DNA from: an uncultured bacterium
GTDB taxonomy: Bacteria > Verrucomicrobiota > Verrucomicrobiia > Verrucomicrobiales > DEV007
Reading direction: 5' to 3'
NCBI GenBank assembly: GCA_963977015.1
Contig: CAXBMO010000009.1
Location: 160,001-224,000 of the forward strand
DNA: 64,000 bases
Positions within the stretch are counted from its first letter, which is position 1; each line of letters begins with the position of its first letter. Position numbers and translations under genes: made by a program. Below, one piece after another: positions 23,443 through 44,561 of this stretch. The notes under the pieces were generated by a model. The model did no database searches and was not told the DNA's origin. It was given only the letters and a program-made list of their open reading frames with translations.

Positions 23443-25859
23443 TTGGGACGCATCAAGATTTTACCACTGCTTTGAAGCCGCGTCGCCATCCATCCGACCA
23501 ATTCGGCGTAAACCCAATGCTTCCCATCGACATACCGTTCACTCAGTTGCTTGACGTAGACGTAGTTGTTCACCTCAGCAATTTTGTCACTTCCCGTGTC
23601 CGTGCCTGCGCGCATGGAAAGCACCCCATCGCTTGACTGGACACTCCAGGTTCCGTTGCCGGTCGACTTCATGTAGGTGGTTTGGGTCCCCTCGGCCACC
23701 ATCCACCCTCTCACTCGAACTTCGACCCACCGATTGTTTGCGGTTCGCCCGGTTGCGACCAGAGGAACCGAAAACTGTCGAAACGCGGCGCCCAGACTGG
23801 CCGCATCGCTGTCAGCGGCCGCCCTGACCGTGACACCTTCTTTTCCCGCATAGACCACCTCATAATTGGACACGGCTGGACTTTGCTGAACCGGCGTTGG
23901 ATTCTCCGGGAAGGAAATTTCCGCGTCTTCAATGCGGGCGGAAAGGATAAACCCGGCATCATCAGTTCGGCTCGACTTGATCTCAAAGTAATTGGTTCCG
24001 GTAATGATTTTGCGAGTTGCCCCATCAGAAACGTAGTAGCGGGCCTTCAAGGAAACGGAATATCGCTCGCTCCGAATCTCGCTCACATGGGGCTCACTCA
24101 GAATTTCATGCGTCCTTTGAGTCCACCTCGAATTGTACGCGTTCAGCTTCTCGGCAATTTCATCTCGACCGAGATAACCGTAGTCAAAATAGCGCGCCCG
24201 GTTCGCAAAAAAGCGAAGCTGGTCCTGACCCGAATCACTGTCGCCGGCGCTCAAATAGGCGAGCGCATAGTTTTTGACCGCTTCGCTGTGATCTTCTTTG
24301 ACGGGTTCGGTTTTCGGCTCATCCGGAGGCGGAGTTACGGGTTTGGCGACCGACGCCAATTCGTTGGCTACGTCCATTCGAATTTTTCGAACCCGGTCGC
24401 TCAGTTTGGTCACGGACTTGGAGTGCTTCCTCATTTCGTCCGCCAATTGATTTGCTTCGGCATGAACTTCAGCCGAGGCGCCCTGGCGTTTGGAGATCGA
24501 CAACAATTCGTCCATTCGGTCCATGTTGGCTGACGCTTGATTCGTCATTCTTTCCACTTCATCAACATTGCTTCTGGCCTGGCTACGAAGTGCCGTCAGC
24601 CTGCCCCCCGAAGCGGTGCTGGTTTCCTTGTTAATGGCAATCCAATAGCCGTCTGCCCGATCCCTTTCGCTGCGAATCGTGGCAAAGGTGGTCGAAACCG
24701 ATTGTCGTAGATCCCTCATCGCCGTTGGCGAAGTGCTTCCCGGAACGAAGCCGGCGACGGGATCAACCTTTGGCGGGGGATCGGCAGCATAGGTGATGCG
24801 AGCGGTTGTGCTCTGCACGTCTCCGGGAGGATGGAAACGTTCCCAGGCCAACCATCCTCCTACTCCCAGAATGGCAATGGAGGCAAAAACGACCGCAAAC
24901 AGAAGACCACTTCTCCGATTCGGTTGACGTCCGGTGGCCAATCGTTCTGTTCGCTTTTTGAGTGCGGTTCGTCGTTTCCGGGCATTCTCGAAACATTCCC
25001 GCCATTCCCCCACAGTTTGAGGGCGATGGGTTTCTTCGAAAGATAGGGCGACATCGACGCCGTCAACGAAACCGCTCGAAAAATCCCCCAGGTCCAAGTT
25101 CTGAAAGTTCAACGGATCGACCGCTTTTGTCCGGCCGGCAGCTTCCGGAGGAGCCTTGCCAACCATCGCCCGATACATGACCGCACCCAGCGAATAAATG
25201 TCCGTCCAGGGTCCCTGATTCCCGCTCTCATGATACTGCTCGAACGGGGCATAAGCAGGTGTCAGGACAGCGGTCATCGCCCGGGTCTTTCCGCCCACCG
25301 CCAGTCTCGCACTCCCAAAATCGATCAACACCGGACTGCCATCGCGCGTGATGATGATGTTCTCCGGCTTGATGTCGCGATGCAGATAGCCATTCTCATG
25401 CACAACTTCCAATCCTTCCATGAGCTTGCTGAGAATGGTCCAGAGTTCATCCTCCGAAGGAGTCCGGTCCAATTTTTCCAACCAGTCTCCCAAACTCTCA
25501 CCGTCGAGGAAGTCCGTTACCATGTAGCCGGTGCCATTCGCCTGGAAAATTTCATGAACGCAGACAATGGACTCGTGGTCGCAGGCGGCAAGGATGCGCC
25601 CCTCCTCCATAAATCGCTGTAGCGCCCATTGAAAGGTATCAACATCAGCCTGGGTTTTCGGCGCCACCCTCACTCCATCGCGGGTGGCAAAATCAGACGG
25701 GAGCAACTCTTTGATTGCCACCTTTCTTTTGAGCTCCAGATCCTTAGCCTCGTAGGTGATGCCAAACCCTCCAAAGCCCAGAATTCGGCCCAACTTGTAA
25801 TGACTCAATTGCGTTCCCTCAGCGAGGGCCAACCGATGCGATCTAGCGGTTTGACTCAT
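23439..25859 (-). CDS. Ser/Thr kinase K1: kinase, TM, coiled coil, NTF2-like domain and two SH3b-like repeats
   Basis: GFGGFGITY, VAIKE, HRDIKPEN, DFG, YAPFEQ. TM GLLFAVVFASIAILGVGGWLAW. C-terminal repeats VTVRAAADSDA..WVEVRVRGWM and LSMRAGTDTGS..WVYAELVGWM. Confidence 0.9.
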   Translation of the reverse strand: MSQTARSHRLALAEGTQLSHYKLGRILGFGGFGITYEAKDLELKRKVAIKELLPSDFATRDGVRVAPKTQADVDTFQWALQRFMEEGRILAACDHESIVCVHEIFQANGTGYMVTDFLDGESLGDWLEKLDRTPSEDELWTILSKLMEGLEVVHENGYLHRDIKPENIIITRDGSPVLIDFGSARLAVGGKTRAMTAVLTPAYAPFEQYHESGNQGPWTDIYSLGAVMYRAMVGKAPPEAAGRTKAVDPLNFQNLDLGDFSSGFVDGVDVALSFEETHRPQTVGEWRECFENARKRRTALKKRTERLATGRQPNRRSGLLFAVVFASIAILGVGGWLAWERFHPPGDVQSTTARITYAADPPPKVDPVAGFVPGSTSPTAMRDLRQSVSTTFATIRSERDRADGYWIAINKETSTASGGRLTALRSQARSNVDEVERMTNQASANMDRMDELLSISKRQGASAEVHAEANQLADEMRKHSKSVTKLSDRVRKIRMDVANELASVAKPVTPPPDEPKTEPVKEDHSEAVKNYALAYLSAGDSDSGQDQLRFFANRARYFDYGYLGRDEIAEKLNAYNSRWTQRTHEILSEPHVSEIRSERYSVSLKARYYVSDGATRKIITGTNYFEIKSSRTDDAGFILSARIEDAEISFPENPTPVQQSPAVSNYEVVYAGKEGVTVRAAADSDAASLGAAFRQFSVPLVATGRTANNRWVEVRVRGWMVAEGTQTTYMKSTGNGTWSVQSSDGVLSMRAGTDTGSDKIAEVNNYVYVKQLSERYVDGKHWVYAELVGWMATRLQSSGKILMRPK

Positions 25860-27518: not shown

Positions 27519-29315
27519 ATGGCATTAGAAAACCGACAGGCACTTATTCCAGGCACCATCTTGGGCGAAAAATACGAAATTCTTTCGTTACTCGGAAGCG
27601 GGGGATTCGGAATCACCTATCTCGCCATCGACAATACGCTCAATCGCAAAGTCGCGATCAAGGAGTTGATGCCAGGCGAGTTTGCGATGCGGGATTGGGA
27701 CTCCGAGGAGATCGTCGCAAAAACGCTGTCAGAGGAAACCTCACTCCAGTGGGCCAAGGATCGCTTCATTGAGGAAGCACGGGTACTCGCCCAATTTGAT
27801 CATCCTAACATCATTCATATCCACGACTATTTCATCTCGAGAAACACCGCCTACATGGTGACTTCTTATGAAGAGGGAGCTGATCTCAATACGTTTTTAA
27901 AGGAGAAAGGGCTCTTTCATCAGGAAGACATCAACACTTACATTCTCCCGATCCTCAATGGACTGCAGCTGGTCCACGAAAGCGGATTTCTGCACCGCGA
28001 CATCAAGCCCGACAATATCTACATCAATCACAAGGGCATCCCCATTCTTCTCGACTTTGGAGCGGCCCGCCAAGCCATTGGCAACAAAACCCGGGACATG
28101 ACGGCGATCGTCACGCCCCGATTCGCGCCGTTGGAGCAATACTCCAGCGATGGGAATATGGGGCCGTGGTCAGATATCTATTCCCTCGCCGCCGTCATCC
28201 ACAAAGTCATCACTGGCGATGCCCCACCTGACGCGACGACCCGGATTCGGTCCGATACCTACGAACCGTTGGCGGAAAAGCGCATCAAGGGCTTTGATCA
28301 CGCGTTCTTGACCTGTGTTGACTGGGCCTTGGAACAGTCCGAGGAACGGCGACCGCAAACCATTGCTCAATGGGTCGACCACTTCACGGTTTCGGGAGGC
28401 GCTCCACCAATCCCCACCGATCACTTTTCAGAAACCGTGGTGGCCGGAGGCAGTCGCGCCCCGTCGAGGCCTGTGAGAAGATCCACAGAAGAAACGGTCT
28501 TGACTCAACCTCGCCCCTCTTCAGCGGTTTCCGAACCCAGGAAATCACGCACAGGTCTCATCGCCGCCTTGTTTCTGGGATCAGCACTGTTTCTCGGCTT
28601 GGGAGGATTTGTGGCGCTGCGCCAATATTCCCCCGATCTCATCGCGTTCTTCGATAGCAGCGAATCCGACAATGATTCATCCGGTCCCATTGACGACGGT
28701 ACAGGCGGAAATGACACTGGGGCTCCACCACCCAACCCAATTCCCGAGGACGACAGCAAGCCCGACGTTTCCGAGGAAGAACCGGACAAGCAAACCGAAT
28801 CCCCGATCATCCTCCCACCGACTCCTCCAAAACCGCCGGACGAGACCAAGCCTCCGGTAGAATCAGTTTCACTCGATGAGTTGGTCGACTACGTGACCGC
28901 TGTGGACCGCCGACTGTGGGATGCCTGGTATGCGGACCGAATCATTCGAGCGTCGATCCAACCGCAGATGAACCTTCGTGATCCGGATATGAGCGAAGCG
29001 GAATTTCGGGCCAACCAGACCAAACTCCAGGAAGCCTTCACCGCCCGAAACAATCAGGTCATCCAGTACTGCGAGGACGTTCGCCTCGACGTCGCGAAGC
29101 TGATGAAATACGAAGAGTCGCAAGTGGATCAGGCCTTTGCCGCCAGACTCAGCCAAATCCAGCAAACCGGAGTTGAGCGCAAGGTTAATACGGAAGTTCA
29201 ACAGAAACTTCTTGGAATCGCAAAGTCCATTTATAAGGATGAAAAGGCGGGTTTGATCGTGAACGCAAACGCCATCAGGGAACGAATCAAAGGCCTTTCT
29301 GCATTGCAGAAATAA
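27519..29315 (+). CDS. Ser/Thr kinase K2: kinase, TM, Pro/acidic linker and helical extracytoplasmic domain
   Basis: GSGGFGITY, VAIKE, HRDIKPDN, DFG, FAPLEQ. TM LIAALFLGSALFLGLGGFVAL. Confidence 0.92.
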   Translation: MALENRQALIPGTILGEKYEILSLLGSGGFGITYLAIDNTLNRKVAIKELMPGEFAMRDWDSEEIVAKTLSEETSLQWAKDRFIEEARVLAQFDHPNIIHIHDYFISRNTAYMVTSYEEGADLNTFLKEKGLFHQEDINTYILPILNGLQLVHESGFLHRDIKPDNIYINHKGIPILLDFGAARQAIGNKTRDMTAIVTPRFAPLEQYSSDGNMGPWSDIYSLAAVIHKVITGDAPPDATTRIRSDTYEPLAEKRIKGFDHAFLTCVDWALEQSEERRPQTIAQWVDHFTVSGGAPPIPTDHFSETVVAGGSRAPSRPVRRSTEETVLTQPRPSSAVSEPRKSRTGLIAALFLGSALFLGLGGFVALRQYSPDLIAFFDSSESDNDSSGPIDDGTGGNDTGAPPPNPIPEDDSKPDVSEEEPDKQTESPIILPPTPPKPPDETKPPVESVSLDELVDYVTAVDRRLWDAWYADRIIRASIQPQMNLRDPDMSEAEFRANQTKLQEAFTARNNQVIQYCEDVRLDVAKLMKYEESQVDQAFAARLSQIQQTGVERKVNTEVQQKLLGIAKSIYKDEKAGLIVNANAIRERIKGLSALQK

Positions 29316-30006: not shown

Positions 30007-30039
30007 CCTTCGAGGAGTAGGACGACAACGAACCACCCT

Positions 30040-30569: not shown

Positions 30570-31850
30570 ATGAGTTGGTTAGGCACAGATTATAGTCACA
30601 TTGGCACAAGGGACGAACAACAGGACGCCCTCGTTGTTCTCAGCAATGAAACCAAGGACCAAGTCTTTGCCGTGCTGGCCGATGGCGCAGGCGGTCACAG
30701 TGGGGGGAGATTGGCATCGGAAGCGATCGTCGCCGTCGCGACCAAACGGTGGGAAACCGCCGCTGGAGAAATACCCGACCCCGAAACGTTTTTACTCGAC
30801 TTTTTTGCCCACGCCCAAGCCCGAATTACGGCGACCGGAAAAAAGGCAGGCATCGAACCGCGGGCAACCGTCGTGGCAGTCTATGCCAACGGGAAAAGAG
30901 CAGTTTGGGGGCACTCGGGAGATTCTCGACTCTACCTGTTTCGGAAAGGTCAATTGGTCAAGCGAACCAAAGATCATTCCGTGGTGCAGATCCTCGTCGA
31001 TCAGGGAAAGGTTCGTGAAGAGGAAATGGGAACTCACCCCGACCAAGGTCGACTGCTTCAGTCGCTGGGAGGTTCCGACTATCAAGTACCAGATATTGGG
31101 AGCGCAAATATTCAGGGTGATGAAGTGATTGTTCTCTGTTCTGACGGCTTCTGGGAACACCTGCCAAAAGAAGCCATTGCCCAACTCTCCGTTCCCGGAA
31201 AATTAAAGCCTCCCAAACTGATTAAGAAGCTCGCTCACGCGGCCGTCAGTCGAGCCGGCCAGAAAGCCGACAATACAAGTGCGCTGGCGATCTACAACAT
31301 TGCCGCCAATCGGCCGGCCTTTTTCATGGGAGGAATCCATTGGGCTGCAGTTGCCTTGTTCTGCCTGTTGGCGGGAATGGTGACCTATCTTGTAATGTAT
31401 CTGATCAAGCCTGACAGCTCTCCAGGCAACCAACCTCCCGATGCTCCAGTCCAAAACGTTGCATCCCAAGTGGTTTCCGGCGGCCCCAAAACTTCTCCAG
31501 CTGATCAAGCCCCCATTCCGAACGAAAGCGAAGATATCCGCGAGGCTGGTGAAAATCCCCTTCCAAAGGCACTGGATCCAACAACAGGAAAGCCAAAAGT
31601 AAGGATTATCCCCAATATTATCCAGCCGGCTCCAGATGCCCCCACAGCTATCGTGGAGCCTGCCTCCCCAGTTGAAGAGGTGCCTGTCGAACCCACGCCC
31701 CCGCCCACCTCTCCTACAGATCAGCCAACGACGCCAGAGAACACCGGCGAGGTTCCTCCCATGTCGCCGGACTCACCACCGGCAGACGAGGAAAAGGGCA
31801 TTATTCGCAAAGGATTCGAAAAGTTAAATCCGATTAAGAGAGACAAATGA
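30570..31850 (+). CDS. PP2C/PPM phosphatase with TM and Pro-rich extracytoplasmic tail
   Basis: [54 protein letters not shown]. Confidence 0.9.
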
Positions 31851-33271
31851 AGCGCCTTCACCTACTCATCGCCCTGCTACTGGCCGCTCTTCAATCCAGT
31901 TCACTGGGATGGGATGCGAAAACTGCCGAAGACGTCGTGGTGCGAGTCGCGATTTTCACGAGTAGCGGAAAATATTCCGGTCACGGATCAGGCTTCGTCG
32001 TCAGTCGGGACGGACATGTCGTCACCAACAATCATGTGGTTCGAGGTGCCGGAACTCTATTGGTCATTCGCAAGGAATCGCCCCAGGAAATGGGGGTCTA
32101 CAAAGCTGAGGTGCTGTTCAACGACTCAGGTCTCGACATGGCCATCATCAAGGCGAAGGGAATGAAAGGAGGACCCATTTCAACCCTGGCAACGGAAGTC
32201 CCGCCCAAGGGGGATCGAGTTTATGCCGCAGGGTTTCCCGGACAGAATGATGATATTAAGGATTTGATCGCGCTGCTCAACAAGATCATGAGCGCCGATG
32301 AGTTTCCCATACACCGTAAAATCGATAGCACGACGGAAGATGCGCTCGACGTGTCCATTAAGCCGGGATTCATCGAACAAGTATCAACCAGTTCCTGGCT
32401 CAGGGCATCGACCGGAAGTGGCGGCGGAGTCGAATTGGAAATCATCAAGCACAGTGCCTCGATCGTTCACGGGAATAGCGGTGGCCCCCTTTTTGATGAG
32501 AAAACCCGGGTCATTGGCATCAACACCGCGGGAAACGCCGACGAAAAAACCTACAACAATCTCCGGCTCTCTGGAAGAATCACGGAACTCATTGATGCCC
32601 GTGCATTCAAGGATCACGACATTCACCCAATCATCAGCGGCAACACCGTCACCGCATTGAGTTTGGCTGACCCCAAAATTCTACTCCTCATTGTGCTGGT
32701 TATGGCCCTGTGTGGCATGGGCACGCTGCTTGTCGTCCATAAACAGCGTGCGGCAGCCGGCGCCAGAGGGCCCGTCCTGGTTCGAGGTGATGGCCGAACT
32801 CCCCATGCGCCCAGCCAGAACGATCAAGCCCTCACCTTGGGAACTGGGGGAGAAGTGTTGGGCCGGAGGTCTCCTGACACCAAAATCGCCGGATCAGGCG
32901 GCAATCGCCGGGGCATGCCGCCCGCGCAAAGCAATGGGCGCAACCGCTGGGTCCTGGAAGGAAATGGCCCCGACGGGAGGCACCACCGCCTTGAATTGGA
33001 TAATCGGAGATTGTCCCAATCCACCAGCGGATTAAAAATTGGTCGCAAACGCGAATCCGCAGACATTGAGCTCGACGACAGTAGCGTCTCGAGACCTCAC
33101 GCTCGAGTTTTCCTGCGCAAAACCAGCCTTTATCTGGAAGATTTGGGATCGTCAAACGGTAGCTTTGTCAATGGTGAGCGCCTTGGTGGTAAAATCCAGG
33201 CAATCAAGCTGAAAGAGAATTCTGAAGTCAAACTTGGAGAAGTCAGGTTGAGGTTTCTGCCTTTACGATAA
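31847..33271 (+). CDS. Trypsin-like serine protease-TM-FHA protein T2
   Basis: Signal peptide. Triad in TNNH, LDMAII and [31 protein letters not shown] motifs IGR..VSRPH..SSNGS. ATGA overlap with the PP2C gene. Confidence 0.9.
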
Positions 33272-33279
33272 TTTGTCTG

Positions 33280-34542
33280 ATGGGAGCCGACCTTTCATTG
33301 CCCCTCAAATCCCAAATTGGAGCCTACAGTGTTCAACGTGTTTTGGGGCAGGGAGGTTACGCCATTACCTACGCCGCAAGGGCGAAAAATGGAGAACTTG
33401 TTGCGATCAAGGAATTGTTTCCTGAGCAGTTCTCACGACGTAGCCCGGACAACTGGGTTTCGCCTAAACCCGGCGATCAGGAAGATTTTGAATATATTAA
33501 AGAACGCTTTGTTCGAGAGGCGAGAATGGTTTGCGGGTTCAATCACCCCAATCTGCTCAAAGGGCTGGATTGGTTCGAACAGAATGGGACTGCCTACATC
33601 GTTATGCGATATGAATCAGGCCTCCCTCTCCATCAGCATCTTCGCAATAAATCGAGCAACTTTAAGGTTACTCCCGGAAGCATCGCCAGGCTCTTTCAGG
33701 GTCTGCTCGTCGCGTTAAAAGTCGCCCACGACCAGCATTGCGTCCACTGCGACATCAAACCAGGAAACATCTATCTTGGCGAAAATTTTCTCCCGGTGTT
33801 GTTGGATTTTGGTGCAGCCCGCCACGCCGTCAACGAACGGCTTTATCAAGCCCACGAATCACTGGTCCCATTCACGGAATACTACGCCCCAATTGAACAG
33901 TATCCGGAGCATTCCGGGGAGATTGGCCCCTGGACCGATATCTATCAGCTTGCGGCCGTGATCTATCGCTGTCTGACTGGCGGCAAAATCCCGTCAGCCA
34001 TCGATCGGGTCGTGAAAGGAGCACCGGATCCCTATTACCCGCTGAGCCAACTCGTCATCAAAGGAAAGGGCTATCCAGTAGAGTTTCTCGAAGCGGTTGA
34101 TTGGGCGCTCGCGATCCAACCTCGAGACCGCCCTCAATCGATTTCGGAATGGCGCCGACGTTTGGATCGCCCGATGAAGCGAATGGCGCGGGAAGCCAAG
34201 AAGACTGTGCGAATTGATGCGCGCGATCGCCCCATTGTCGAAACGGTTGAAAATACTGAACTGCCACCAGAAACGCTCGAAACCCTGACCGTTGTCTCCA
34301 AAGGCGCCAAGTCAGGGTATGAACGCCGGAAAACCCAAAACGTTCCCGACGACTATGATATAGACCAAAGTCTTGGCAAAAGATCCTCCGACGGGCGAAC
34401 GCCAGTCGCCTTTCGAGTCATTATATGGTGCTTGGTACTCGCCATCGTGGTCCTCATTTTCCTGATGGTGGCAGAAAATTTCGGCTGGAACCTGCGTTTT
34501 CTGGCTGACTATTGGGATGAAATCCGCGACTCGGCCAACTGA
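33280..34542 (+). CDS. Ser/Thr kinase K3 (non-RD, HCD) with C-terminal TM and essentially no ectodomain
   Basis: GQGGYAITY, VAIKE, HCDIKPGN, DFG, YAPIEQ. TM VIIWCLVLAIVVLIFLMVA. Confidence 0.9.
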   Translation: MGADLSLPLKSQIGAYSVQRVLGQGGYAITYAARAKNGELVAIKELFPEQFSRRSPDNWVSPKPGDQEDFEYIKERFVREARMVCGFNHPNLLKGLDWFEQNGTAYIVMRYESGLPLHQHLRNKSSNFKVTPGSIARLFQGLLVALKVAHDQHCVHCDIKPGNIYLGENFLPVLLDFGAARHAVNERLYQAHESLVPFTEYYAPIEQYPEHSGEIGPWTDIYQLAAVIYRCLTGGKIPSAIDRVVKGAPDPYYPLSQLVIKGKGYPVEFLEAVDWALAIQPRDRPQSISEWRRRLDRPMKRMAREAKKTVRIDARDRPIVETVENTELPPETLETLTVVSKGAKSGYERRKTQNVPDDYDIDQSLGKRSSDGRTPVAFRVIIWCLVLAIVVLIFLMVAENFGWNLRFLADYWDEIRDSAN

Positions 34543-34563: not shown

Positions 34564-36978
34564 CTAACTGGGTCGCAAATTTGGGATACGGATCCCATTG
34601 CGAAGAAAACCCAACTCCGTCAACTTCATCTTGCGTAGACGAAAGTAGGTCGCAAACAGCGCTCCGCCAAAATAGGGAAAAAAGAGAAAAAGGCTGAGAG
34701 CAATTCGGCTTTTTCGATAGTTATCAACACTTCCATCAACGTCGTCGATTTTCTCTTCAGAAAAATTGCCGAGCGGAGCCTTTGCATCCGGATCCCGGCT
34801 TGTTGGCGGGCCAATATATCCCTCGTAATTGAGCGCCTCCAAGTGAGAAATCGCTTCAAAAGCCCAACGTGACGGCATCACTTCCATAATCGATTTCGTC
34901 ATCACACCGGCTCGATCGTATTGCGCCAACAACCCTCCAAAAAAGATAAACGGAATCAGAATAATCGGAATAAGGACAATGGCCGTTACTTCCGTCTTCG
35001 ACCACGCACTTACCAACAGTCCCAACCCGACTCCGATCATTGAGGCAAGCCAACACACTGCAAGTCCTGCAACAGGATTGATCGTCAGATCCAGAAAATG
35101 AACGGTGAGAAACACCAAAATTGCACACTGCACCAACCCAATCACGCCCAGGACGGAAATTTTCGACATCAAATACGCCAACGGTGATTGCCCAAAGCGA
35201 GCCTCCCGATTGAAGATATTTACCTCGCCGACCAACTCTCGCGCTGAATTGTTGGTACCAAACCAGATTGCGACAAAGGTCAGAAGAAAAAGTGGAGGAT
35301 TGACTGCTTTGTCACGAAAGGCCAATGCCAGAAAAATCGCCACCAAGGGAGCCTGAATCAGAAGTATGAGGAGAGATGACCGGTCGCGCAGTTTGCATTG
35401 AACGTAGCGTTTGGTCAGTTGGAAATATTGCGTAACTGCGGAGGCTCGTTCCGACGGAGCCCGGTTCTTGGGCTTATCTTGCGGAGTTCGGCTGAGAAGA
35501 GCAAACCGTTGTCCCACGTTTTTCTCATAGTGAGATGAACCACGGTAACGGTGAGCCATGTCCTCCTCAGGAAGATCATCAATATTTTCCATGATCCCAT
35601 CAGGACCGGCTGCATCATGGTGTTGATTCGGCACAAAATATTGGATCGAATCTGGGTAGGCGGTTCCGAAATAGCAAAGGTGCCCAGCTTTGAGATAGAT
35701 CGTCTTATCCAGAAGCTTGTAAACTCGAGTCGAAGGCTGATGAATGGTGATAATGATGGCGATACCTTTGGAATCGGCAAGCTTCCGAAGAATTTCCATC
35801 ACCACCCTGGTGTCTTTCGAGGAAAGGCCGGAGGTTGGCTCATCAAGAAACAAAACCCGCGGGTCGGTCAGCAACTCGATCGCGAGATTTACCCGCTTCT
35901 TTTGGCCACCGGAGAGCGTTTTCTTTTCGGGCGAGCCGACCAATTCATCCCTTAGGTCCAGTTTACCATTCGGATCCCACAATCCCAGATCCTCGCACAA
36001 TTGATCTATCTTCTCGTGAATTGCCTCACTCGAAGTCGAAGCTGGCAACCGAAGCTTGGCATTGTAAAAAAGCACCTCCCGGACGGTCAGCTCCGCATGC
36101 ATAATATCGTCCTGAGGTACATACCCAATTTGGGACTCAAACCTTCGACGGTTGCTCAGCATGTCGATACCATTGTAGAGCACATCACCCGTGAATCCCG
36201 GCACGCTTCCACTCAGCGCATTCAAGAGTGTCGTCTTTCCACAACCCGATGGCCCAAGAAGGCCAACAAACTCACCAGGAAAAACACAAAGGTCGATACC
36301 TTGAAGAATCTTTTTCGGCTGACCAGTCCTTCGATCAGTAACTTCAAAAGTCAGCTGATCAACCTGGACGTAGATCCCCTCCCTCTCGGTCCCCACGACA
36401 ATATTTTCGGGGTTCGCCGGATCAAAATTCAACGAAATGGATACCCCACCCAACTCCAACAGGTCACTGGGGTTGATCTGGATCTTGCCGTCCGCGTAGG
36501 CCACCCCATTAATATATACAGGTGCACCTTTGGGACGAATATAGCGGACGCCTCCGCGAGTAATATTGAGCTCCGCATGATTTGGGTGGACGCTCAAATA
36601 CGGAAGTATCACCTCGTTGTTCCTCCCTGAACCAAACCGGATTTTTGCGGCATTGAACTTCTGGACGGATCCTCCCGCCCCGGATGTCAACGCCTGTCCT
36701 CCCGAATGCTCCCATTCCTCAAATCGCTTTAACAGCAAATTGCCAGGCAGACGGTAATTCTCGGAAAAATAGAAGATGTCGTCCGGGCGAACCTCCACCA
36801 ATCCATCTCGCACCTCAGAATTGAGCGAATTGAGGAACGTCCCATTGGAGCTGCCCGCATCTTCAAGATAAACCATGCCATCCCGACGGCGCATCCGTGC
36901 ATGAGTCGAGGAAACGTAGGCGTTGTTCAGCACCATATCGTTATTCGAACTTCGCCCCAGTTGAAACATCTCTGCCAT
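34564..36978 (-). CDS. FHA-FHA-ABC ATPase-ABC2 permease fusion (Rv1747-like exporter)
   Basis: FHA1 LGR..VSSTH..SSNGT and a degenerate FHA2. GPSGCGKT, LSGGQ, LFLDEPT, TIHQP, multiple C-terminal TMs. Confidence 0.92.
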   Translation of the reverse strand: MAEMFQLGRSSNNDMVLNNAYVSSTHARMRRRDGMVYLEDAGSSNGTFLNSLNSEVRDGLVEVRPDDIFYFSENYRLPGNLLLKRFEEWEHSGGQALTSGAGGSVQKFNAAKIRFGSGRNNEVILPYLSVHPNHAELNITRGGVRYIRPKGAPVYINGVAYADGKIQINPSDLLELGGVSISLNFDPANPENIVVGTEREGIYVQVDQLTFEVTDRRTGQPKKILQGIDLCVFPGEFVGLLGPSGCGKTTLLNALSGSVPGFTGDVLYNGIDMLSNRRRFESQIGYVPQDDIMHAELTVREVLFYNAKLRLPASTSSEAIHEKIDQLCEDLGLWDPNGKLDLRDELVGSPEKKTLSGGQKKRVNLAIELLTDPRVLFLDEPTSGLSSKDTRVVMEILRKLADSKGIAIIITIHQPSTRVYKLLDKTIYLKAGHLCYFGTAYPDSIQYFVPNQHHDAAGPDGIMENIDDLPEEDMAHRYRGSSHYEKNVGQRFALLSRTPQDKPKNRAPSERASAVTQYFQLTKRYVQCKLRDRSSLLILLIQAPLVAIFLALAFRDKAVNPPLFLLTFVAIWFGTNNSARELVGEVNIFNREARFGQSPLAYLMSKISVLGVIGLVQCAILVFLTVHFLDLTINPVAGLAVCWLASMIGVGLGLLVSAWSKTEVTAIVLIPIILIPFIFFGGLLAQYDRAGVMTKSIMEVMPSRWAFEAISHLEALNYEGYIGPPTSRDPDAKAPLGNFSEEKIDDVDGSVDNYRKSRIALSLFLFFPYFGGALFATYFRLRKMKLTELGFLRNGIRIPNLRPS

Positions 36979-37053: not shown

Positions 37054-37833
37054 TCATACAACCCGAAAGACAACGACGGTTATATTGTCCTGCCGGTCTT
37101 TCCGGCGCGATTCCACTGTCTGGATCAGTTGCTTACAGACAACGGATGCATCCGATGCTTCATGAATCTCAATCGTTGCCCGCAGTTTCTCCAAAGGAAG
37201 CGTATCCAAGCCATCGGTAGCCACAATGATCATGTCACCTTTCTCCACTTCTACCGGAGGTTTGCCCTGATCAAGAGCGCCTTCCGTCAACGGCTCACCA
37301 ATGATCGCTGATCGGAGGACATTTCGATCCGGGTGATTCTCAGCATCCTCAGCCGTCATTTCACCCCGCTCAACCTGGGCTGCCAAAATTGGCGCCATCG
37401 AATGGTCATCGTTGAGCCTTTTGAATTGCTTGGAAGCTCTGCTGAAATGATAGAGGGTGGAATCTCCGATGCTCGTCCAACGCAGCATGTTGTCCCTCAA
37501 GAATGCCGCAACCAGCGTGGTGCCCATGCCCGAGTAGGTTTGGGGCTCTTCTTCGCACAACTTGCGAATCGCCTCGTTGGCACCTCGCAAGCCCTTTGAT
37601 AGTCTCACCGTATCGACGTCGAGCGACTCAGAAAATTCGCGAAGGAAATTTTCCGTTGCCACTCGACTTGCAATATCTCCGGCCGCATGTCCGCCCATCC
37701 CATCCGCGACGACGACGAGTAGGTCTCCGCCCCGAACTCCGAGCGCATCTTCAATTGCAACCTGATAGTAGTCTTCCTGATAGGGACGATCACCTTGAGA
37801 TTGCCTTCCAGCAATATCCCGTTCAGGCTCCAT
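37054..37833 (-). CDS. Soluble PP2C/PPM phosphatase
   Basis: GDRPYQED, ADGMGGH, GMGTT, IGDS, DHS, ATDGL, QDNIT. Confidence 0.93.
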   Translation of the reverse strand: MEPERDIAGRQSQGDRPYQEDYYQVAIEDALGVRGGDLLVVVADGMGGHAAGDIASRVATENFLREFSESLDVDTVRLSKGLRGANEAIRKLCEEEPQTYSGMGTTLVAAFLRDNMLRWTSIGDSTLYHFSRASKQFKRLNDDHSMAPILAAQVERGEMTAEDAENHPDRNVLRSAIIGEPLTEGALDQGKPPVEVEKGDMIIVATDGLDTLPLEKLRATIEIHEASDASVVCKQLIQTVESRRKDRQDNITVVVFRVV

Positions 37834-38519
37834 TAGACGAGGGTATTGTCACTCCAGTCAAATTGTTCGCCACACAGAGGAACAAACTTGAGGGTGGTCC
37901 CTCCAATTCGAATCAATTCTCCGCCAGCAAGCTCAACAGGAGTCAAAACCGGGCTTTGCTCGGCGCCCAGGTAGGTGAGGTTGCTGCCTTGGGTGTTCGG
38001 TTGAACGAAATATTTTCGACTGCGCGGATCATAGGTAATAATCGCGTGGGCACTTCGCGAAACTTCCTGATCACCAAACGGCAACGGAACGCGGTTGTCA
38101 GGATTACGACCGATTTGATTCATGCCATAACCCAAAGTCAAGGCGCTGCCACGGCCTGGTCCCGCAACAATGACAACCCAGCCAACAACCGGGTCTTCGA
38201 TTTCACCGGGAGCTTGGGGATTGCCCTGTGCAACGCCGCCTGCAGGAGCAATTCCTGGTGCGGGCTCGATACCACCTGCCGCCACAGGCCTAACCAAACG
38301 CGTCTTGTCGCTGTCAGCTCCAGAATTCGATCCCGGCCCACCCTGCGAAGCAGGCTGATTGATCACTGAGGTGTTGTCATCCTGGATGCCTGAGCGCTCA
38401 ACAATTCGGGTTGCTTCCGGATCATCGCTACTGGTTCTCCTGATCTCCTGGCTCTGTTCTTGATAGTCCGCATCGCTTGGGCGTCTACGAATAATTCGAG
38501 TCGTGTCATCGTTGCTCAT
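37833..38519 (-). CDS. FHA protein with disordered N-terminal tail bearing repeated Thr motifs (GarA/OdhI-like architecture)
   Basis: FHA motifs IGR..VSRSAH..GSN. Tail motifs DDTTRII, EATRIV, DNTSVI, DKTRLV. TAATG overlap with the PP2C gene. Confidence 0.88.
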   Translation of the reverse strand: MSNDDTTRIIRRRPSDADYQEQSQEIRRTSSDDPEATRIVERSGIQDDNTSVINQPASQGGPGSNSGADSDKTRLVRPVAAGGIEPAPGIAPAGGVAQGNPQAPGEIEDPVVGWVVIVAGPGRGSALTLGYGMNQIGRNPDNRVPLPFGDQEVSRSAHAIITYDPRSRKYFVQPNTQGSNLTYLGAEQSPVLTPVELAGGELIRIGGTTLKFVPLCGEQFDWSDNTLV

Positions 38520-38544: not shown

Positions 38545-39375
38545 CTAGCGGGCTTTTTTTTCAAGAAGTCGGTTAATCAAATTATCAAACGTGTATTGGC
38601 CGGCACGGTTGAGCGAACGCTCCTCTCCGCCTTGCACGAAGTTCATCACCAACATCAGGACTCCGCTCATGACCAGGGCAACCAAGGTGGTATAAAAAGC
38701 AACGCCCAATCGCGCCGTGGTCGGTCCCAGAAGATTATCCGGATCGATCCCGTCTCTGCCCGCAAAAGCCAACGCATCTGCAATCCCAATCACAGTTCCA
38801 ATAAATCCCATGGTGGGGATTACCCAAACCACGTAACGAATGAGGTTATAGCGCAAATCCAGTTCGTGAAGGCAGAGTTCCAGGTTGGAATTCAGCAAGT
38901 TGTTGGCTTGATCAACGGAATCCGATTTCCGGAATTGGATGATGGTTCTCCGAATCAATTTGGGGAGAAAATAGCTTTGATTCGCTTTGTTGACCCGTTT
39001 GTAGATTGGAGTGAGGTCCTCGTGAGTGAGAATCGTTTGTTCGTCTTCCGGCAAAAATTCCAGACTCAGTTGATGCTTTTCTTTCGAAGCGGCCCGATGC
39101 CGCAACCACAATTCACCAAGCCCCAAACAAAGGGCAATCCACATGAAGGCCTGAACTGAAAAATATCCGTATTCCTCTTTTCCATCCTCAACGCGGCGGT
39201 TGATGAGGATCTGGGAAAAATCCACCTTCGTGTATTCACCGCTCGCATCCTCGCCTTTTATCTGAATCGGAGGAATCATATTCAAGGTTACGATGATCGC
39301 CACCCCGACCAAGAAGGCAATGAGCCCCACAACCAAGCGCTGCGCATCAAAAACGCTGTCTGACTGATCATTCAT
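38545..39375 (-). CDS. MotA/TolQ/ExbB proton channel family protein
   Basis: IPTMGFIGTVIGI and LGVAFYTTLVAL helices plus two N-terminal TMs. Confidence 0.88.
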   Translation of the reverse strand: MNDQSDSVFDAQRLVVGLIAFLVGVAIIVTLNMIPPIQIKGEDASGEYTKVDFSQILINRRVEDGKEEYGYFSVQAFMWIALCLGLGELWLRHRAASKEKHQLSLEFLPEDEQTILTHEDLTPIYKRVNKANQSYFLPKLIRRTIIQFRKSDSVDQANNLLNSNLELCLHELDLRYNLIRYVVWVIPTMGFIGTVIGIADALAFAGRDGIDPDNLLGPTTARLGVAFYTTLVALVMSGVLMLVMNFVQGGEERSLNRAGQYTFDNLINRLLEKKAR

Positions 39376-39791
39376 CGCCGAATAATTTCTCCCGTTTCTG
39401 GATCCAGGTATGCACCACCACCCTGCCGTGGAGCAGGTGAAGGCTGGGCCGGAGGTTCCGGTTCAGGCGGTGCGGCAGGCGGATCTTCCGGTGAGTGCAA
39501 CGGAGGAGCAATCAGGTCAAGCAGATCCCCCACAGACGTCTGGTACTGCTGCCCGAGGCGCAACGGAGTATCTCGCCTGACATTCCCCTGATTGATTGGC
39601 ACCCAATCCCCATTCTCCCAAATTTCCGTTCCGTTCTGGCCACTGATGTCCACGACCAGAAAATCTCTTCCCCCTGTATCCGTAATCTCCAAATGCTGTC
39701 GACTCACAGCATCCTGATCCTCCGGCACGCTAATGTCGCAGGGTTTCGTATGGTTCTTTCGACCAACAATGTAGACCTTACGGTTTGCCAT
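39372..39791 (-). CDS. Small FHA protein with Pro-rich tail
   Basis: VGR..VSRQH..QNGT. Tail ends YLDPETGEIIRR. ATGA overlap with the MotA-like gene. Confidence 0.82.
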   Translation of the reverse strand: MANRKVYIVGRKNHTKPCDISVPEDQDAVSRQHLEITDTGGRDFLVVDISGQNGTEIWENGDWVPINQGNVRRDTPLRLGQQYQTSVGDLLDLIAPPLHSPEDPPAAPPEPEPPAQPSPAPRQGGGAYLDPETGEIIRR

Positions 39792-39808: not shown

Positions 39809-41269
39809 CTAATTCACGCGAAAGCGCATTTTCACTTCTCCCAGCTCCAACGTGTCACCGTCGCGCAATGCCGACTGCTCCACTCGCTTTCCGTTCACGT
39901 AAATTCCGTTTCCTGAGTCCAGATCCGTTACGGACCAACTGCCATCTCGACTCTGATTGATCACGCAGTGGCTATTGGAAACACTGTCGTTGCGCAACAC
40001 CAAATCATTGTCATTCCCCCTCCCGATTCGCATGTTGGTGATCGTGATCTGTTCCTGGCTCCCATCAGCATCCAACATCTCCAACCATCCATACACGTGA
40101 TTCGAGAACTGGGGAGCGACCGGAATATCATCATAAATTTCTGTGGCTTCCCCGGAAATGACCGGATCAACGTCATTGCCTCCCGAAAGTTTGCGCAGCA
40201 GCAATGCCAAAATCACAATGGCAACGGCGACTGCGGCAATGATGATGTAGAGAACGGTATTATCGGTGGCCTCGCCTCCATTAGGATCGTCCCCCCCGGT
40301 GGCACCAACGGCCCCGGATGAGGATTTCACCTCAATTTCCCGCTTAATCTTGTCTCCTTTTTCGGTTTCGATCTCAATCGTCACTTTCGAATTCCCGCTC
40401 AGTGCCGACGCATCGAGAACCAGTCTGCCTCCACTTTCAGCAAAGGGATAAAATACCTCTTTGTCGAAATCCTCCGGCAACTTGTAAGTGCCGTATTCAG
40501 CCCGCTTATAAAGCCCTTTTGTTGGCTCAACCATTCGCCGTAACGACTGCAAAAACTGGGACTTGTCCTTCTCGTTCTGAGCATACCCAAGAGCACTGAT
40601 CACGACGCCCGCCTTTTTTGCCTGTTTCTCAACCTCGGCGACAAGGTCAACCAACTCTCCCTGGTCCTCGTATTCGCCGTCGGAAAAGATGATGAGATGC
40701 TTTCGATCCGCGTCGCTCTTGGCCAGTTTCGCAATCAATTCACGGGTAAGCTGGAAAATCTGGGTGGTCTTTCCCTTTGCCTTGTGTTTCTCGAGCTCGC
40801 GAATCGCGAACCCGGAATTTTGGCCGAGCTCCGCCACGGTGGTGAGCGTGTCGGCTTCAATGGTAAAGACTCCAAATTTATGAACCGGCGATGCTGGCGT
40901 CATCATGCGCTTGGCGTGAGTGATCTCCCAATCATTGCGCTTCTTAAAAATCGCCGCCTCCGGTGCACTCAGGTCAATCAACAAGGCGATATCGCTCGAG
41001 ACTCCCTCCACCTCGACAAAGGGCAGATAGGACTTCACAGCCACTTCTGCGTCTCCACTCAAGGCCTTGATCGAATCCTTCTTGACGGTAACAGCCTTGG
41101 AATCCATGAGGGTCGGGTTAATGGCCTCCGGATCCCACAACCGAAAGTCGATCGAAATGGTATTGGCCTCATCATCATGAGTTGGTCCCGATAGGACCAT
41201 GATTTCTCCGCCCAAAGAAAGCGCGGCAAATGTTAACAGCGAAAATAATCCTGTCGCGATCGATTTCAT
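39809..41269 (-). CDS. Signal peptide-vWA-TM-FHA protein
   Basis: LLIDLS, LIIFSDG, VVISALG (vWA with imperfect MIDAS). TM YIIIAAVAVAIVILALLL. FHA motifs IGR..VSNSH..SGNG. Confidence 0.85.
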   Translation of the reverse strand: MKSIATGLFSLLTFAALSLGGEIMVLSGPTHDDEANTISIDFRLWDPEAINPTLMDSKAVTVKKDSIKALSGDAEVAVKSYLPFVEVEGVSSDIALLIDLSAPEAAIFKKRNDWEITHAKRMMTPASPVHKFGVFTIEADTLTTVAELGQNSGFAIRELEKHKAKGKTTQIFQLTRELIAKLAKSDADRKHLIIFSDGEYEDQGELVDLVAEVEKQAKKAGVVISALGYAQNEKDKSQFLQSLRRMVEPTKGLYKRAEYGTYKLPEDFDKEVFYPFAESGGRLVLDASALSGNSKVTIEIETEKGDKIKREIEVKSSSGAVGATGGDDPNGGEATDNTVLYIIIAAVAVAIVILALLLRKLSGGNDVDPVISGEATEIYDDIPVAPQFSNHVYGWLEMLDADGSQEQITITNMRIGRGNDNDLVLRNDSVSNSHCVINQSRDGSWSVTDLDSGNGIYVNGKRVEQSALRDGDTLELGEVKMRFRVN

Positions 41270-41476: not shown

Positions 41477-42463
41477 TTAGTTTCCTAAAGAACTAAGCCC
41501 AACAAATTGTCCTCCATTGCGATCAGCAAGCTTGAAAAGGAAGGATACGAACTCCGCATCCTCGGTATAATCCCCAACCGCCACCGTGTGGATTTCCTTC
41601 CTCCCAGCATTTTGACTGGTGATTTGGCTCAAAATTTCGTCGTGGGTCGCATCATTGGGATTTCCATCAGTGAACAGAATGACCGCCTCCGCCGAGCTGT
41701 TAAGCGCCTTTTTGAGCGCGGTCAGGGTTGGGGTTTGCCCCCGGAACTCCGAGGTCCACTTGCGGACCGTCGCCTTGGCTTCCGAAATCCCGCTGCTGTT
41801 CATCGTCCGCAAGGTTGGAAACGGTTCCGGCCAAACGTGAAAAATGGGTGTGGTCGCCTCGGTACTGTCCGTATGAAACCCCAGCATCGACATCTGATAA
41901 CCGGAATCCATGGGATCGACCATTTGCGCCACGGCCTGTTCGGTAATCGTTTTGTATTCTTTCATACTTCCCGACATATCCACCACAAAAATGAGCTTTT
42001 TGGCTTGGGTCACAATTCCGAGAAAAGCCAACCGGTGGGCCTCTTCCAACTCTCGTTCCAAGGATCTGGCGCGTTCTTCGGCATTGCGACGAGCGACTTC
42101 CAGGTCTTTTACCTGCCGATTCGCCTTTTTCTTGGCTTCTTCCAAACTCGCGACGGCACTGCGGGCCTCCGCCTGGGCTTGATTGGCCTTCTGCCGCATC
42201 GCCTCTGCCTCATCGGCGTTCACCCGAGCCATTTTTTCGGCTTCGATTCGTGCTTCAACGGCCTTTCTGGAAGCGCTTTCCGCTTGCGCCCGCAGTTGCT
42301 CCAAAAGAAAGACGTTTCGTTGAGCCTCCTCAAAATCCCGCGAGGTCTTCTGGTAATACTGCGTCAGAATGATCATCAGCAGCATGAACGCCCCCATCGC
42401 ACACGCAAAAAGGTCAACCATGGACAGACTGAACGTCTCAATCGTGCGGCTGCGTTTTCTCAT
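41477..42463 (-). CDS. ExbD/TolR-like N-terminal TM, coiled coil and vWA domain protein
   Basis: MRKRSR..FSLSMVDLFACAMGAFMLLMII (Asp at the start of the TM), A/E/K/R-rich coil, MIDAS DMSGS..T..TDG. Confidence 0.85.
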   Translation of the reverse strand: MRKRSRTIETFSLSMVDLFACAMGAFMLLMIILTQYYQKTSRDFEEAQRNVFLLEQLRAQAESASRKAVEARIEAEKMARVNADEAEAMRQKANQAQAEARSAVASLEEAKKKANRQVKDLEVARRNAEERARSLERELEEAHRLAFLGIVTQAKKLIFVVDMSGSMKEYKTITEQAVAQMVDPMDSGYQMSMLGFHTDSTEATTPIFHVWPEPFPTLRTMNSSGISEAKATVRKWTSEFRGQTPTLTALKKALNSSAEAVILFTDGNPNDATHDEILSQITSQNAGRKEIHTVAVGDYTEDAEFVSFLFKLADRNGGQFVGLSSLGN

Positions 42464-42821
42464 GTCCTGCCATTTTGCATAAGTTCGATCTGGGAAAAAC
42501 TGTTCTAATCGATCAGATCGTCAACCTCAAGTATCAATCTGACAAGGCCCCGCCAAAAGCCTTCGCCCAATACCGGAATCACACTTTTTTCGCATTCGGA
42601 GCAAACAGTTCCGACCGGAATTCGAAATGCATCCAGTCGAAGTGATCCCAAGGAAGGTAAAAGCGTAACTTCGCATTTCCCGACATCGAAAGTTCAACGG
42701 AAGCGGGCGGTAGGAGGCTCCAATTCGATTGCCTCGTAAGATTAGGCTTGCCGACGAAAGCGCTCACGGTTTAAAAACGATCGTAGGCTATATTGATAAT
42801 CAAACGGCAGGATTCCAAGTG

Positions 42822-44561
42822 ATGGACGCGATACAGGAGCGACGACCATTGAAACCGCGGTCTCGATTGGGTGACTACCGAATCGACCAAGTCCTTCAAC
42901 AGGGAGGTCTCGTCGTGTCCTATCTCGCTCACGATCTGCAGTTGAAGAAACCGGTGGTGGTCGAGGAATTGGTTCCGCAGGGCCTGGCTGGTCGCTCCTC
43001 GGGCGAGGCGGTGTTGCCATCGAATGGTGAATGCCCGGTTACGTTCGCCCAGGCGAAAGAGGCGTTTATCGCGGAAACGAAATTGGTCGCCGGAATCACT
43101 CATCCCAATGTGATTCACGTCCTGCGCTTGTTTGAGGCAAACAACACGGCCTATCGCGTTGTCGAGCACGTGCGGGGGCCGAATTTGGAGACGTTTCTGA
43201 GCCTTGCCGAAAAGCCCATTCCGGCTCACACGCTACGCAGACTCCTGAGCCAGATTCTGGCCGGACTCGAACGCATCCATCAACGCGGGTTTGCTCACCT
43301 CGGCATCTCACCGGTCACGATCATGGTGGCGGAGGATACGAAGCGGCCCGTCTTGGCGGAATTCGGGATCGCCCGCGCCAAGTTGCGAAACTCCGGTTGG
43401 ACGAACTCCGAAATCGCGGGCGACTGCCTTGCTCCCGAGCTTTCACCTTCCGTGCCCGATGAAGCGGGCCCGCACTCCGACATCTATGCTTTCGCCAAAA
43501 CGATCCATCGGGCCTTGATCGAAAGTTCTCCGGAACGCGATCAAATATCCGGAGCGGAGGGACTGAGTGGTGACTCGATCCTGATCAACCGCTATGGCCT
43601 TGCGTTTTTGAGGGAACTCGAGCGGGGATCCAGTCAAAATCCCGCAACTCGGCCACAGAGTGCTTCCGAATGGTCAGAGTTGCCTGAACTGCTTTCTCCT
43701 CATGAAGCAGATCCCAAACCGGCGCAAATCCTGACACGGAGAAAAAAGGGGGGAAGTTGGCGAATTGGAAACGGGTTTTGGAAGCTTCTTCACCAGGACG
43801 GTGAGTCCGCCCCCGTTGAATCCAAGGCGATTCAAAGCACTCCAGCAATTATCGAACCGCCTCCCGCCATTGATCCTGACCCCGTTGTCGCCCCCCCTGA
43901 AGTTTTGCCAGCCGAGCCGCCACCAGTTTCCAAGCCCCTGGTGGCGGATGTCCCAATTATTGAGCCCCCTTCCGCAGTAGACGAAGTTCTGGAAATACCG
44001 GTCCCCCTACCGGTTTCGGTCCCGGACCACCAAGTACCGGCCATACCAGAGGATCCCGTGGAAGCCATTCACGAAAACGAAATCCCTTCCCCTGCCGCGA
44101 ATTCCTCCCCCACTCCAGAATCTCCTCCAGAATCTCCTCCAGAATCTCCTCCAGAATCTCCTCCAGATTCCGTGCCATTGCCGCTCGTTGCCCCGCTACC
44201 TCCTCCGGCTCCCGTTGAGGAGATCCCGCAAAAACCTGCCCAACCAACCGTCACCTCGCTGGAGATCATCGCCGGTCCCGGGCAGGGCAATTCTCTTCCT
44301 CTCGGCACAGGCCTCAATCGGATCGGTTCCAGCGGCGAAAACGAGATTCCGCTTCAGTTCGGCGATGCACAGGTTGCCCAGATTGCCCACGCCTTCATCC
44401 TGCGCGACCCGAAGCGACAAGCCTTCTTCCTGCAACCCAACGTGTCCGGCGCAGCACTCCTTTATCTGGGGGAAGACGAGTCGCTCGTTTTGGCTCCTGT
44501 CGAATTGCGCGGCGGCGAGCTGATTCGCATTGGGAACACCAAGCTGAGGTTCATGGCCTAG
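42822..44561 (+). CDS. Pseudokinase K4, Pro-rich linker and degenerate FHA
   Basis: Kinase fold with QQGGLVVSY, VVVEEL, HLGISPVT and EFG. C-terminal FHA closely similar to 37833-38519. Start taken at ATG 42822. Confidence 0.85.
   Translation: MDAIQERRPLKPRSRLGDYRIDQVLQQGGLVVSYLAHDLQLKKPVVVEELVPQGLAGRSSGEAVLPSNGECPVTFAQAKEAFIAETKLVAGITHPNVIHVLRLFEANNTAYRVVEHVRGPNLETFLSLAEKPIPAHTLRRLLSQILAGLERIHQRGFAHLGISPVTIMVAEDTKRPVLAEFGIARAKLRNSGWTNSEIAGDCLAPELSPSVPDEAGPHSDIYAFAKTIHRALIESSPERDQISGAEGLSGDSILINRYGLAFLRELERGSSQNPATRPQSASEWSELPELLSPHEADPKPAQILTRRKKGGSWRIGNGFWKLLHQDGESAPVESKAIQSTPAIIEPPPAIDPDPVVAPPEVLPAEPPPVSKPLVADVPIIEPPSAVDEVLEIPVPLPVSVPDHQVPAIPEDPVEAIHENEIPSPAANSSPTPESPPESPPESPPESPPDSVPLPLVAPLPPPAPVEEIPQKPAQPTVTSLEIIAGPGQGNSLPLGTGLNRIGSSGENEIPLQFGDAQVAQIAHAFILRDPKRQAFFLQPNVSGAALLYLGEDESLVLAPVELRGGELIRIGNTKLRFMA
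44113..44167 (+). repeat. 12-bp tandem repeat CTCCAGAATCTC, four perfect copies plus a partial copy, encoding (PESP)n
   Basis: Read directly from the sequence. Confidence 0.95.

Follow-up and report, generated by a model that had tools for sequence, protein, structure and literature searches.

The island and its tail-FHA protein

The window analysed here is a stretch of 64,000 nucleotides from an uncultured bacterium of the Verrucomicrobiota (Verrucomicrobiales, DEV007), and it contains an island of genes for kinases, PP2C phosphatase and FHA proteins. The focal gene of this study (37833..38519, minus strand) encodes a protein of 228 amino acids, in which a disordered tail (residues 1-108) precedes an FHA domain (37854..38195, minus strand) whose phosphothreonine pocket is intact (G137, R138, S154, R155, H158, N180); a membrane segment is not evident from its sequence. 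In an AlphaFold2 model the tail (~108 residues) is low-confidence coil, predicted to be disordered (pLDDT 49-67 per block), and residues 111-210 form an FHA sandwich (pLDDT 91-97). Pfam recognizes the FHA domain (E 1.2e-6). NCBIfam gives the protein no name; its OdhI model gives no match, and the sole match is to FhaB, at 30.6 bits versus a cut-off of 125. In the ESM Atlas, the feature comparison led to unnamed FHA clusters and the structure comparison to other clusters that contain FHA domains.

An earlier note on this DNA had pointed to four similar motifs in the tail (DDTTRII, PEATRIV, DDNTSVI and SDKTRLV), and we confirmed them at T7 (D4-R11, 38487..38510), T37 (P34-E41, 38397..38420), T50 (D47-N54, 38358..38381, the weakest among the four) and T73 (D69-P78, 38286..38315, the FHA-proximal copy), all on the minus strand. 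Four such motifs did not arise in any of 100,000 shuffled tails, the pattern having been picked post hoc, after seeing the sequence. An orthologue (P0002, 72% identical) retains all four motif threonines, and the two proteins agree at 27 of 32 motif positions versus 35 of 76 spacer positions (p=2e-4). At the DNA level the motif codons are covered by short similarities of 11-13 nt; a longer repeat unit was looked for in the tail and none was found.

The start codon of a PP2C phosphatase gene (37054..37833, minus strand) overlaps the focal stop codon. Directly upstream of the focal gene lies the gene for a MotA/TolQ/ExbB-like membrane protein (38545..39375) and then, also on the minus strand, those for a small FHA protein (39372..39791), a vWA-TM-FHA protein that is a candidate membrane-anchored reader (39809..41269) and a vWA protein (41477..42463), presumably MotB/ExbD-like, in which a hydrophobic segment with an Asp is conserved at the N-terminus. 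This last protein opens with the segment, a strongly conserved F-S-x-S-A-L-D-L-F, and its gene travels with the MotA/ExbB-like gene, which suggests that the two proteins form a stator-like complex with a vWA head. The island also encodes an FHA-FHA-ABC transporter with Rv1747-like domain order (34564..36978, minus strand), in which, on inspection, the first FHA domain keeps the R, S, H and N of the pocket and the second looks degenerate, and a trypsin-TM-FHA protein, another candidate reader (31847..33271, plus strand), of which a second copy is found at 26039-27499. These four residues are kept in five FHA domains of the island besides the focal one (two trypsin-FHA, the vWA-FHA, the small FHA and the first ABC FHA), and four of the five sit on membrane proteins. 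The small FHA protein has a conserved C-terminal P-x-T-G-E-I-I element (R-x-P-x-T-G-E-I-I in full; 39375-39404, minus strand), with T-G-[EKD]-[IVP] in 33 of 39 homologues; 36 of these 39 retain the Gly and 33 the Thr, a pattern that fits a hairpin turn as well as a docking site.

The catalytic Asp and DFG are present in kinases K1, K2, K3 and K6 and missing in K4 and K5. Catalytic motifs are intact in K1 (23439..25859, minus strand), K2 (27519..29315, plus strand) and K6 (56738..58705, minus strand, with a weak motif at T390), and K3 (33280..34542, plus strand) keeps the catalytic Asp (HCD, DFG); K1, K2 and K3 are candidate writers. K4 (42729..44561, plus strand) joins a pseudokinase to an FHA domain that is paralogous to the focal one and has a dead pocket; its linker is without the motif, so that K4 serves as an internal control, and the fusion is retained in the related genome G001. 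K5 (53415-56102, minus strand) is a pseudokinase-TIR protein in which the catalytic Asp is missing (HLNLAPDN, EFG). Its residues ~420-700, before the TIR domain, include an unnamed domain of ~165 amino acids common to at least 672 proteins, in which it has been shuffled between different partners (kinases, STAND, FGE-sulfatase, Hsp70, OmpA and others). In the K3 linker (residues ~318-355) the threonines of RPIV-[ED]-TV, T-x-T-[VM]-V and YERRKT are kept in the G001 orthologue; they do not fit the focal motif, and are possible autophosphorylation sites. The island further holds an nSTAND1 NTPase gene followed by one for an unannotated protein of ~1160 amino acids (44592-53401, plus strand), the latter with a match in G001, and two small genes for lipoprotein-like coiled-coil proteins, which separate K2 from the first PP2C (29371-30426, plus strand) and are found in only one of the best 80 loci described below.

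The threonine motif throughout the family

All homologue sets used here were gathered with tail-containing queries, which biases them toward motif-bearing matches. In the first set (29 kept from 100, with FHA identity below 70% and with the focal protein and its orthologue left out), T-x-hydrophobic-hydrophobic occurs 48 times in the tails, versus 6.6 in shuffled ones (at most 15 in any of 500 shuffles); it is present in 26 of the 29 tails, with at least two copies in 14. The Ser version occurs 5 times, versus 7.2 in shuffled tails. When the residue two positions before each hydrophobic doublet is counted in these tails (n=102), Thr is found 48 times, Ser 5 times, and Val and Ile once each. 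An enlarged set, built from homologues plus 80 genomic loci (174 usable tails of 177, 58 of them non-redundant), gave 103 Thr motifs versus 10.9 after shuffling, with the Ser motif at background level (12 versus 11.8). Copies per tail in these 58 were 0 in 6, 1 in 19, 2 in 20, 3 in 8 and 4 or more in 5. Multivalency is therefore not required, given the 6 tails without a strict motif and the 19 with a single copy. A further set of 142 representatives at 50% clustering, 126 of which have a tail of 45-200 amino acids, gave 198 Thr motifs versus 23.8 shuffled, and 25 Ser motifs versus 26.8. The motif is present in 111 of the 126, with at least two copies in 51; since just 7 reach at least four, the four copies of the focal tail stand at the high end of the range.

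The consensus of the family is D-D-[DE]-K-T-R-[LIV]-[IVL]-R, with [PR] at the next position, the median tail length is 94 amino acids, and the family comprises 2,036 clusters at 50% identity with E<=1e-30. The Thr motif array is a real, conserved feature of the tail. Its conservation in homologues, on which the earlier note had made its reading depend, holds, and the conserved position is Thr-specific.

Some members depart from the simple architecture. Three distant ones (P0098-P0100) have a Cys-rich, zinc-ribbon-like N-terminus, with the Thr motif still just ahead of the FHA domain. A search among longer proteins gave 5 matches, which is weak evidence on fusions. An R-G-P-D-G-K-I-I element opens 18 of the 58 tails, mostly tails with one strict motif; together with the R-x-P-x-T-G-E-I-I of the small FHA proteins, it may represent a shared terminal docking hairpin.

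The FHA pocket and the proximal site

The FHA-proximal copy is the only nearly invariant tail column beyond the start Met, and lies at a median of 28 residues upstream of the domain (IQR 23-32, n=52 tails). In the focal protein T73 sits 37 residues before the domain; T22 of GarA sits 31 before the aligned point. When the family profile was compared with the PDB, the best match was GarA (E 8e-8), in an alignment that spans the tail and places ektrlvr on ETTSVFR, so that T73 aligns with GarA T22; OdhI was likewise matched across its tail. The earlier note had likened the tail to the self-binding ETTSVF of GarA, and this profile alignment makes the comparison closer than that note could show. Foldseek matched the focal FHA domain to those of MDC1, GarA, DgcB, OdhI and ArnA at probability 1.00, with an rmsd of 1.5-2.4 A to the domains of MDC1, GarA and DgcB, and the fold match to GarA and OdhI has a TM of 0.80-0.89 by target length.

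Among 309 distinct domains of the family the pocket residues are kept in nearly every one (G137 in 301, R138 in 304, S154 in 286, R155 in 297, H158 in 302, N180 in 295), and the motif is found upstream in 278. The pocket is dead in K4, in its G001 orthologue and in P0366, which represent two lineages at most, and all three lack the motif.

The family thus shows the features of a self-tail switch, namely a disordered N-terminal tail and a conserved Thr with an acid upstream and hydrophobic residues at +2/+3, within reach of the pocket. Sites of M. tuberculosis PknA have acids at -1 and -3 to -6, L/V at +3 and K/R at +4 (PMC7164672). The self-binding tails of DgcB, GarA and OdhI share E at -2 and hydrophobic residues at -3, +2 and +3, with Ser at +1 (PMC6733907), and GarA is switched off by phosphorylation at ETTS, in an unstructured extension (PMC5448819). 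In the focal family, position +1 is Arg and position -3 acidic, instead of the Ser and the hydrophobic residue of GarA and DgcB. The tail motifs agree with published kinase and FHA-ligand preferences, as the consensus fits both the PknA motif and the DgcB tail (PMC7164672, PMC6733907).

Operon context and spread

At least 550 relatives were confirmed among 600 candidates, and the best 80 loci were retained; Verrucomicrobiota, Proteobacteria, Latescibacterota and Gemmatimonadota are among the lineages represented. In the flanks of these loci (at most 10 kb on each side, and less in some), labelled by phmmer from the window proteins, 78 encode a PP2C, 63 a kinase, 62 a further FHA protein and 54 a MotA-like protein; trypsin is found in 41, a stand-alone vWA protein in 40 and an ABC transporter in 10, and another FHA gene is absent within the flanks of 18. 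The PP2C gene is directly downstream in 71 of the 80 loci, and the MotA-like gene directly upstream in 46. A match to the focal gene is found in 2 of 60 relatives of the source genome, so the gene is patchy among the genomes searched.

PADLOC 2.0 gave no match for the focal, small FHA and vWA-FHA proteins; the MotA-like protein matches ZorA weakly (E 6e-5, ~90 amino acids), and the kinase matches are to kinase domains. No T6SS core gene was found among the 41 window proteins scanned. Other clusters of kinase, PP2C, vWA and FHA genes, distinct from the focal operon, have been reported (PMC7159879, PMC11341870, PMC11217815). A search of mainly open-access literature returned no description of the focal family, of its operon or of multi-site bacterial FHA tails. 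The pairing of MotA-like and vWA proteins and the presence of surface proteases suggest, as the role of the operon, a kinase-controlled envelope-spanning machine for sensing or adhesion.

The motif outside the focal tail

The earlier note had taken the motif for a docking code shared across the island. A matrix trained on homologue tails was used to score 109,185 threonines in 5,053 proteins, predicted with a simple gene finder. T7 and T73 rank 1 and 2, a ranking that is partly circular, and T37 and T50 rank 26 and 891. In K5 the two strings named in the note are located as claimed, in an acidic linker after the TIR domain: EEATRLI (T745, nt 53870; 53859..53879, minus strand) is a strong match at rank 15, and SQTRII (T719, nt 53948; 53937..53954, minus strand) a moderate one at rank 530. 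These two motifs (53854-53871 and 53932-53949) have 15 of 18 nt in common at a spacing of 78 nt, and may be the product of a local duplication. The looser strings that the note listed in K2, K6 and the vWA-FHA protein are present and score low (ranks 776, 357 and 926, with SETVVA under the listing threshold); the K2 motifs are gone in the G001 orthologue (334 of 598 residues identical), and so is EATEIY of the vWA-FHA protein (261 of 463).

Enrichment depends on how the motif is defined. Bare T-x-x-[ILV] is not enriched, with 119 of 547 island threonines (21.8%) versus 21.7% in the remaining proteome. The regular expression proposed in the note is enriched in the island (8 of 547 island threonines versus 118 of 108,264 elsewhere, or 4 of 533 without the focal protein); we do not count it as support, because 3 of the 4 non-focal matches lie inside folded trypsin, ABC or STAND domains and SQTRII is unmatched. 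A generic kinase-linker motif of the genome was considered and rejected, kinases and FHA proteins outside the island having no match to the expression in 144 disordered threonines. With the matrix, threonines in disordered context reach at least 4 bits in 4 of 79 cases in the island, one of them in a folded trypsin domain, versus 32 of 9,782 elsewhere, and the island linkers, drawn by hand, hold 5 sites of at least 3 bits versus 0.74 expected (P=0.001), or 3 versus 0.61 without K5 (P=0.02).

Across the best 80 loci, strong sites are found in 54 of the 75 focal homologues that were classified, five more being left unclassified. Among the other proteins they occur in two kinases (of 105), one phosphatase (of 94), one vWA-FHA or long FHA protein (of 35) and one unrelated ORF (of 554), and in no trypsin (of 55) or small FHA protein (of 43). 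The 173 non-redundant system neighbours hold 4 strong sites versus 0.5 expected (P=0.003), that is 0.46 per 1000 disordered residues versus 18.2 in the focal family, ~40-fold sparser. The module formed by the middle domain and TIR of K5 is present in 2 of 133 other genomes of the taxonomic family and missing from G001 (87% complete), and a true orthologue of K5 was not found. In 118 non-orthologous proteins with this module the 90 residues after the TIR domain hold 1 strong site versus 0.7 expected, and one carrier, L092, has a different architecture and no site of at least 3 bits.

The shared code proposed in the note therefore stands in part: K5 T745 is strong and the island linkers are above chance, but the loss of the K2 and vWA-FHA motifs and the sparse sites of the neighbours indicate a sporadic echo and no fixed island-wide code. 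Judged from these sequences, the echo is that of occasional clients copying the motif. T745 of K5 is probably a competing ligand for the focal pocket, in the source genome only, and not part of a conserved code.

A proposed phospho-switch and its alternatives

We propose that the focal protein works as an adaptor on the GarA/OdhI/DgcB plan, its FHA domain switched by a kinase and its tail carrying several sites, of which the spare ones dock in trans, and give this model as a whole about an even chance. A kinase of the locus (K1, K2, K3 or K6) would phosphorylate threonines of the tail; pT73, the proximal site, would fold back into the FHA pocket of the same protein, and this closure would release a phosphoprotein formerly held there. 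As one pocket takes one site, T7, T37 and T50 would be left free to recruit FHA domains in trans, those of other copies of the focal protein or of the vWA-FHA, trypsin-FHA, small FHA and FHA-ABC proteins, and the adjoining PP2C would reset the switch. The parts of this model differ in strength. That the tail threonines are phospho-sites read by an FHA domain we consider quite likely, and that the proximal site binds in cis reasonably probable; recruitment of other FHA proteins by the spare sites is possible, at somewhat less than even chance.

A four-site tail is plausible as a scaffold for the FHA proteins of the locus. In the best 80 loci the number of sites rises weakly with the number of FHA partners (rho 0.33, n=79, p=0.003, redundancy included; rho 0.25, n=50, p=0.08 for loci with full flanks), a link that is not significant in the 26 non-redundant loci (rho 0.31, p=0.12). 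According to polymer theory, a chain with one pocket and several sites forms branched clusters and no network by itself. Condensation would thus need an FHA dimer or partners that are clustered or have several pockets, and true condensation of the phosphorylated protein seems to us decidedly unlikely. A wider version, which we hold to be unlikely, makes the tail a hub: written by phosphorylation, it would gather into a TIFA-like membrane cluster the MotA-like/vWA membrane complex, the surface trypsin-FHA and vWA-FHA receptors and several kinases, with the number of tail sites setting a threshold and lineage-specific clients such as pseudokinase-TIR K5 plugging in by copying the motif.

The readings that compete with the proposed switch differ mainly in what the additional copies do. 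All of them might serve the pocket of their own protein, making the off-switch faster, redundant or graded, or might dock the kinase, with no FHA protein recruited. Nearly identical copies are what a single reader would predict, copy number ranges from 0 to 5 or more, and 18 of the best 80 loci are without another FHA gene in their flanks; yet each of the four copies is kept in the orthologue though the pocket fits only one, and other FHA proteins occur in 62 of the 80 loci, with the weak positive trend given above (rho 0.25-0.33), so that we regard this reading as rather unlikely. At the other extreme stands the strong form of the code, in which one docking code rules the island and the four-site tail condenses its FHA proteins as in Rv1747 or TIFA. 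The rank of K5 T745 (15 of 109,185), the island linkers (5 sites versus 0.74) and the neighbours of the best 80 loci (4 versus 0.5, P=0.003) speak for it, as do the FHA/pThr condensates reported for Rv1747 (PMC9312465), TIFA (PMC10865109) and T6SS Fha (bioRxiv 10.1101/2023.12.21.572528). Against it, the K2 and vWA-FHA motifs are gone in orthologues, strong sites are rare in the neighbour classes of the best 80 loci, and a chain with a single pocket gives branched clusters unless the FHA domain dimerises or its partners have several pockets; we give it a small chance only.

Two further explanations dispense with phosphorylation or with function. The motif, which is rich in beta-branched residues, could act as a docking peptide without being phosphorylated, for instance as a beta-strand bound by kinase, PP2C or MotA-like protein, and an unphosphorylated DgcB tail has been seen in its FHA cleft (PMC6733907). 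Val, Ile or Ser, however, do not replace Thr at position 0, the motif is missing where the pocket is dead (3 of 3) and it aligns with a known phospho-site, all of which leaves this explanation improbable. That the motifs arose by chance in a tail of low complexity, or were left behind by DNA duplication, could draw on the similarities of 11-13 nt over the motif codons; set against the ~9-fold excess over shuffles across lineages, motifs kept while spacers diverge and a tail without any longer DNA repeat unit, it is extremely improbable.

If the proposed switch is right, a principle already known, self-locking, would have acquired a new part, a multi-site tail of variable copy number, in a family that is large and unnamed; self-tail FHA switches are so far known from a few single-site cases (GarA/OdhI, DgcB), to which the focal family adds a variable number of sites. 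The natural series of 0 to 5 sites raises the question of what multi-site phosphorylation gives a bacterial adaptor, and the motif pinpoints the residues, T73 first, with which to probe how an unstudied kinase-PP2C-FHA-vWA-MotA operon is switched. The hub version, if true, would amount to an undescribed signalling machine in many phyla.

Comparison with known systems

GarA of mycobacteria and OdhI of Corynebacterium are, like the focal protein, small, and in both a disordered tail precedes a single C-terminal FHA domain; the family profile spans both parts. GarA carries a single ETTS motif and controls enzymes of metabolism (PMC5448819, PMC12321487), whereas members of the focal family carry 1-5 separate motifs, have Arg at +1 and +4, form a distinct FHA subfamily (~30% identity) and are encoded in a kinase/PP2C/vWA/MotA operon. 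DgcB of Bdellovibrio (fold match 6hc1) holds its own tail in the FHA cleft and has E at -2, K at -1, T and hydrophobic residues at +2/+3 as in the focal motif (PMC6733907), but has a single site and a fused GGDEF enzyme where the focal protein is without an output domain.

Two systems resemble the multi-site or intermolecular aspect. Rv1747, whose domain order recurs in the ABC transporter at 34564-36978, has pThr sites in a disordered linker read by its own FHA domains; each of its chains holds two FHA domains, and it forms condensates (PMC9312465), in contrast to the one FHA domain of the focal chain, for which partner FHA proteins are found in 62 of the best 80 loci. TIFA, a human innate-immune adaptor, is small like the focal protein, and its N-terminal pThr is recognised by the FHA domains of other TIFA molecules (PMC10865109); unlike the focal protein it has one site, bound head-to-tail between molecules, and it is absent from the PDB matches listed for the focal protein.

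By composition, the archaeal ArnA-ArnB-PP2A module of Sulfolobus is close, with FHA and vWA proteins, a Hanks kinase, a phosphatase and clustered pThr read by FHA (PMC12852372); its sites lie on helices of the vWA partner and ArnA has a zinc finger, whereas the focal sites lie on the tail of the FHA protein itself, which matches ArnA weakly in sequence. In the T6SS, PpkA phosphorylates an N-terminal cytoplasmic Thr of TssL (pT14), which recruits Fha to a membrane complex (PMC3953482); that single site on a membrane protein differs from the multi-site focal tail. With ETTS absent and ~30% identity, the focal protein falls outside the GarA/OdhI family, and the sequence comparisons lead us to see in it a protein that probably works like GarA, OdhI and DgcB, yet is not a member of the GarA family.
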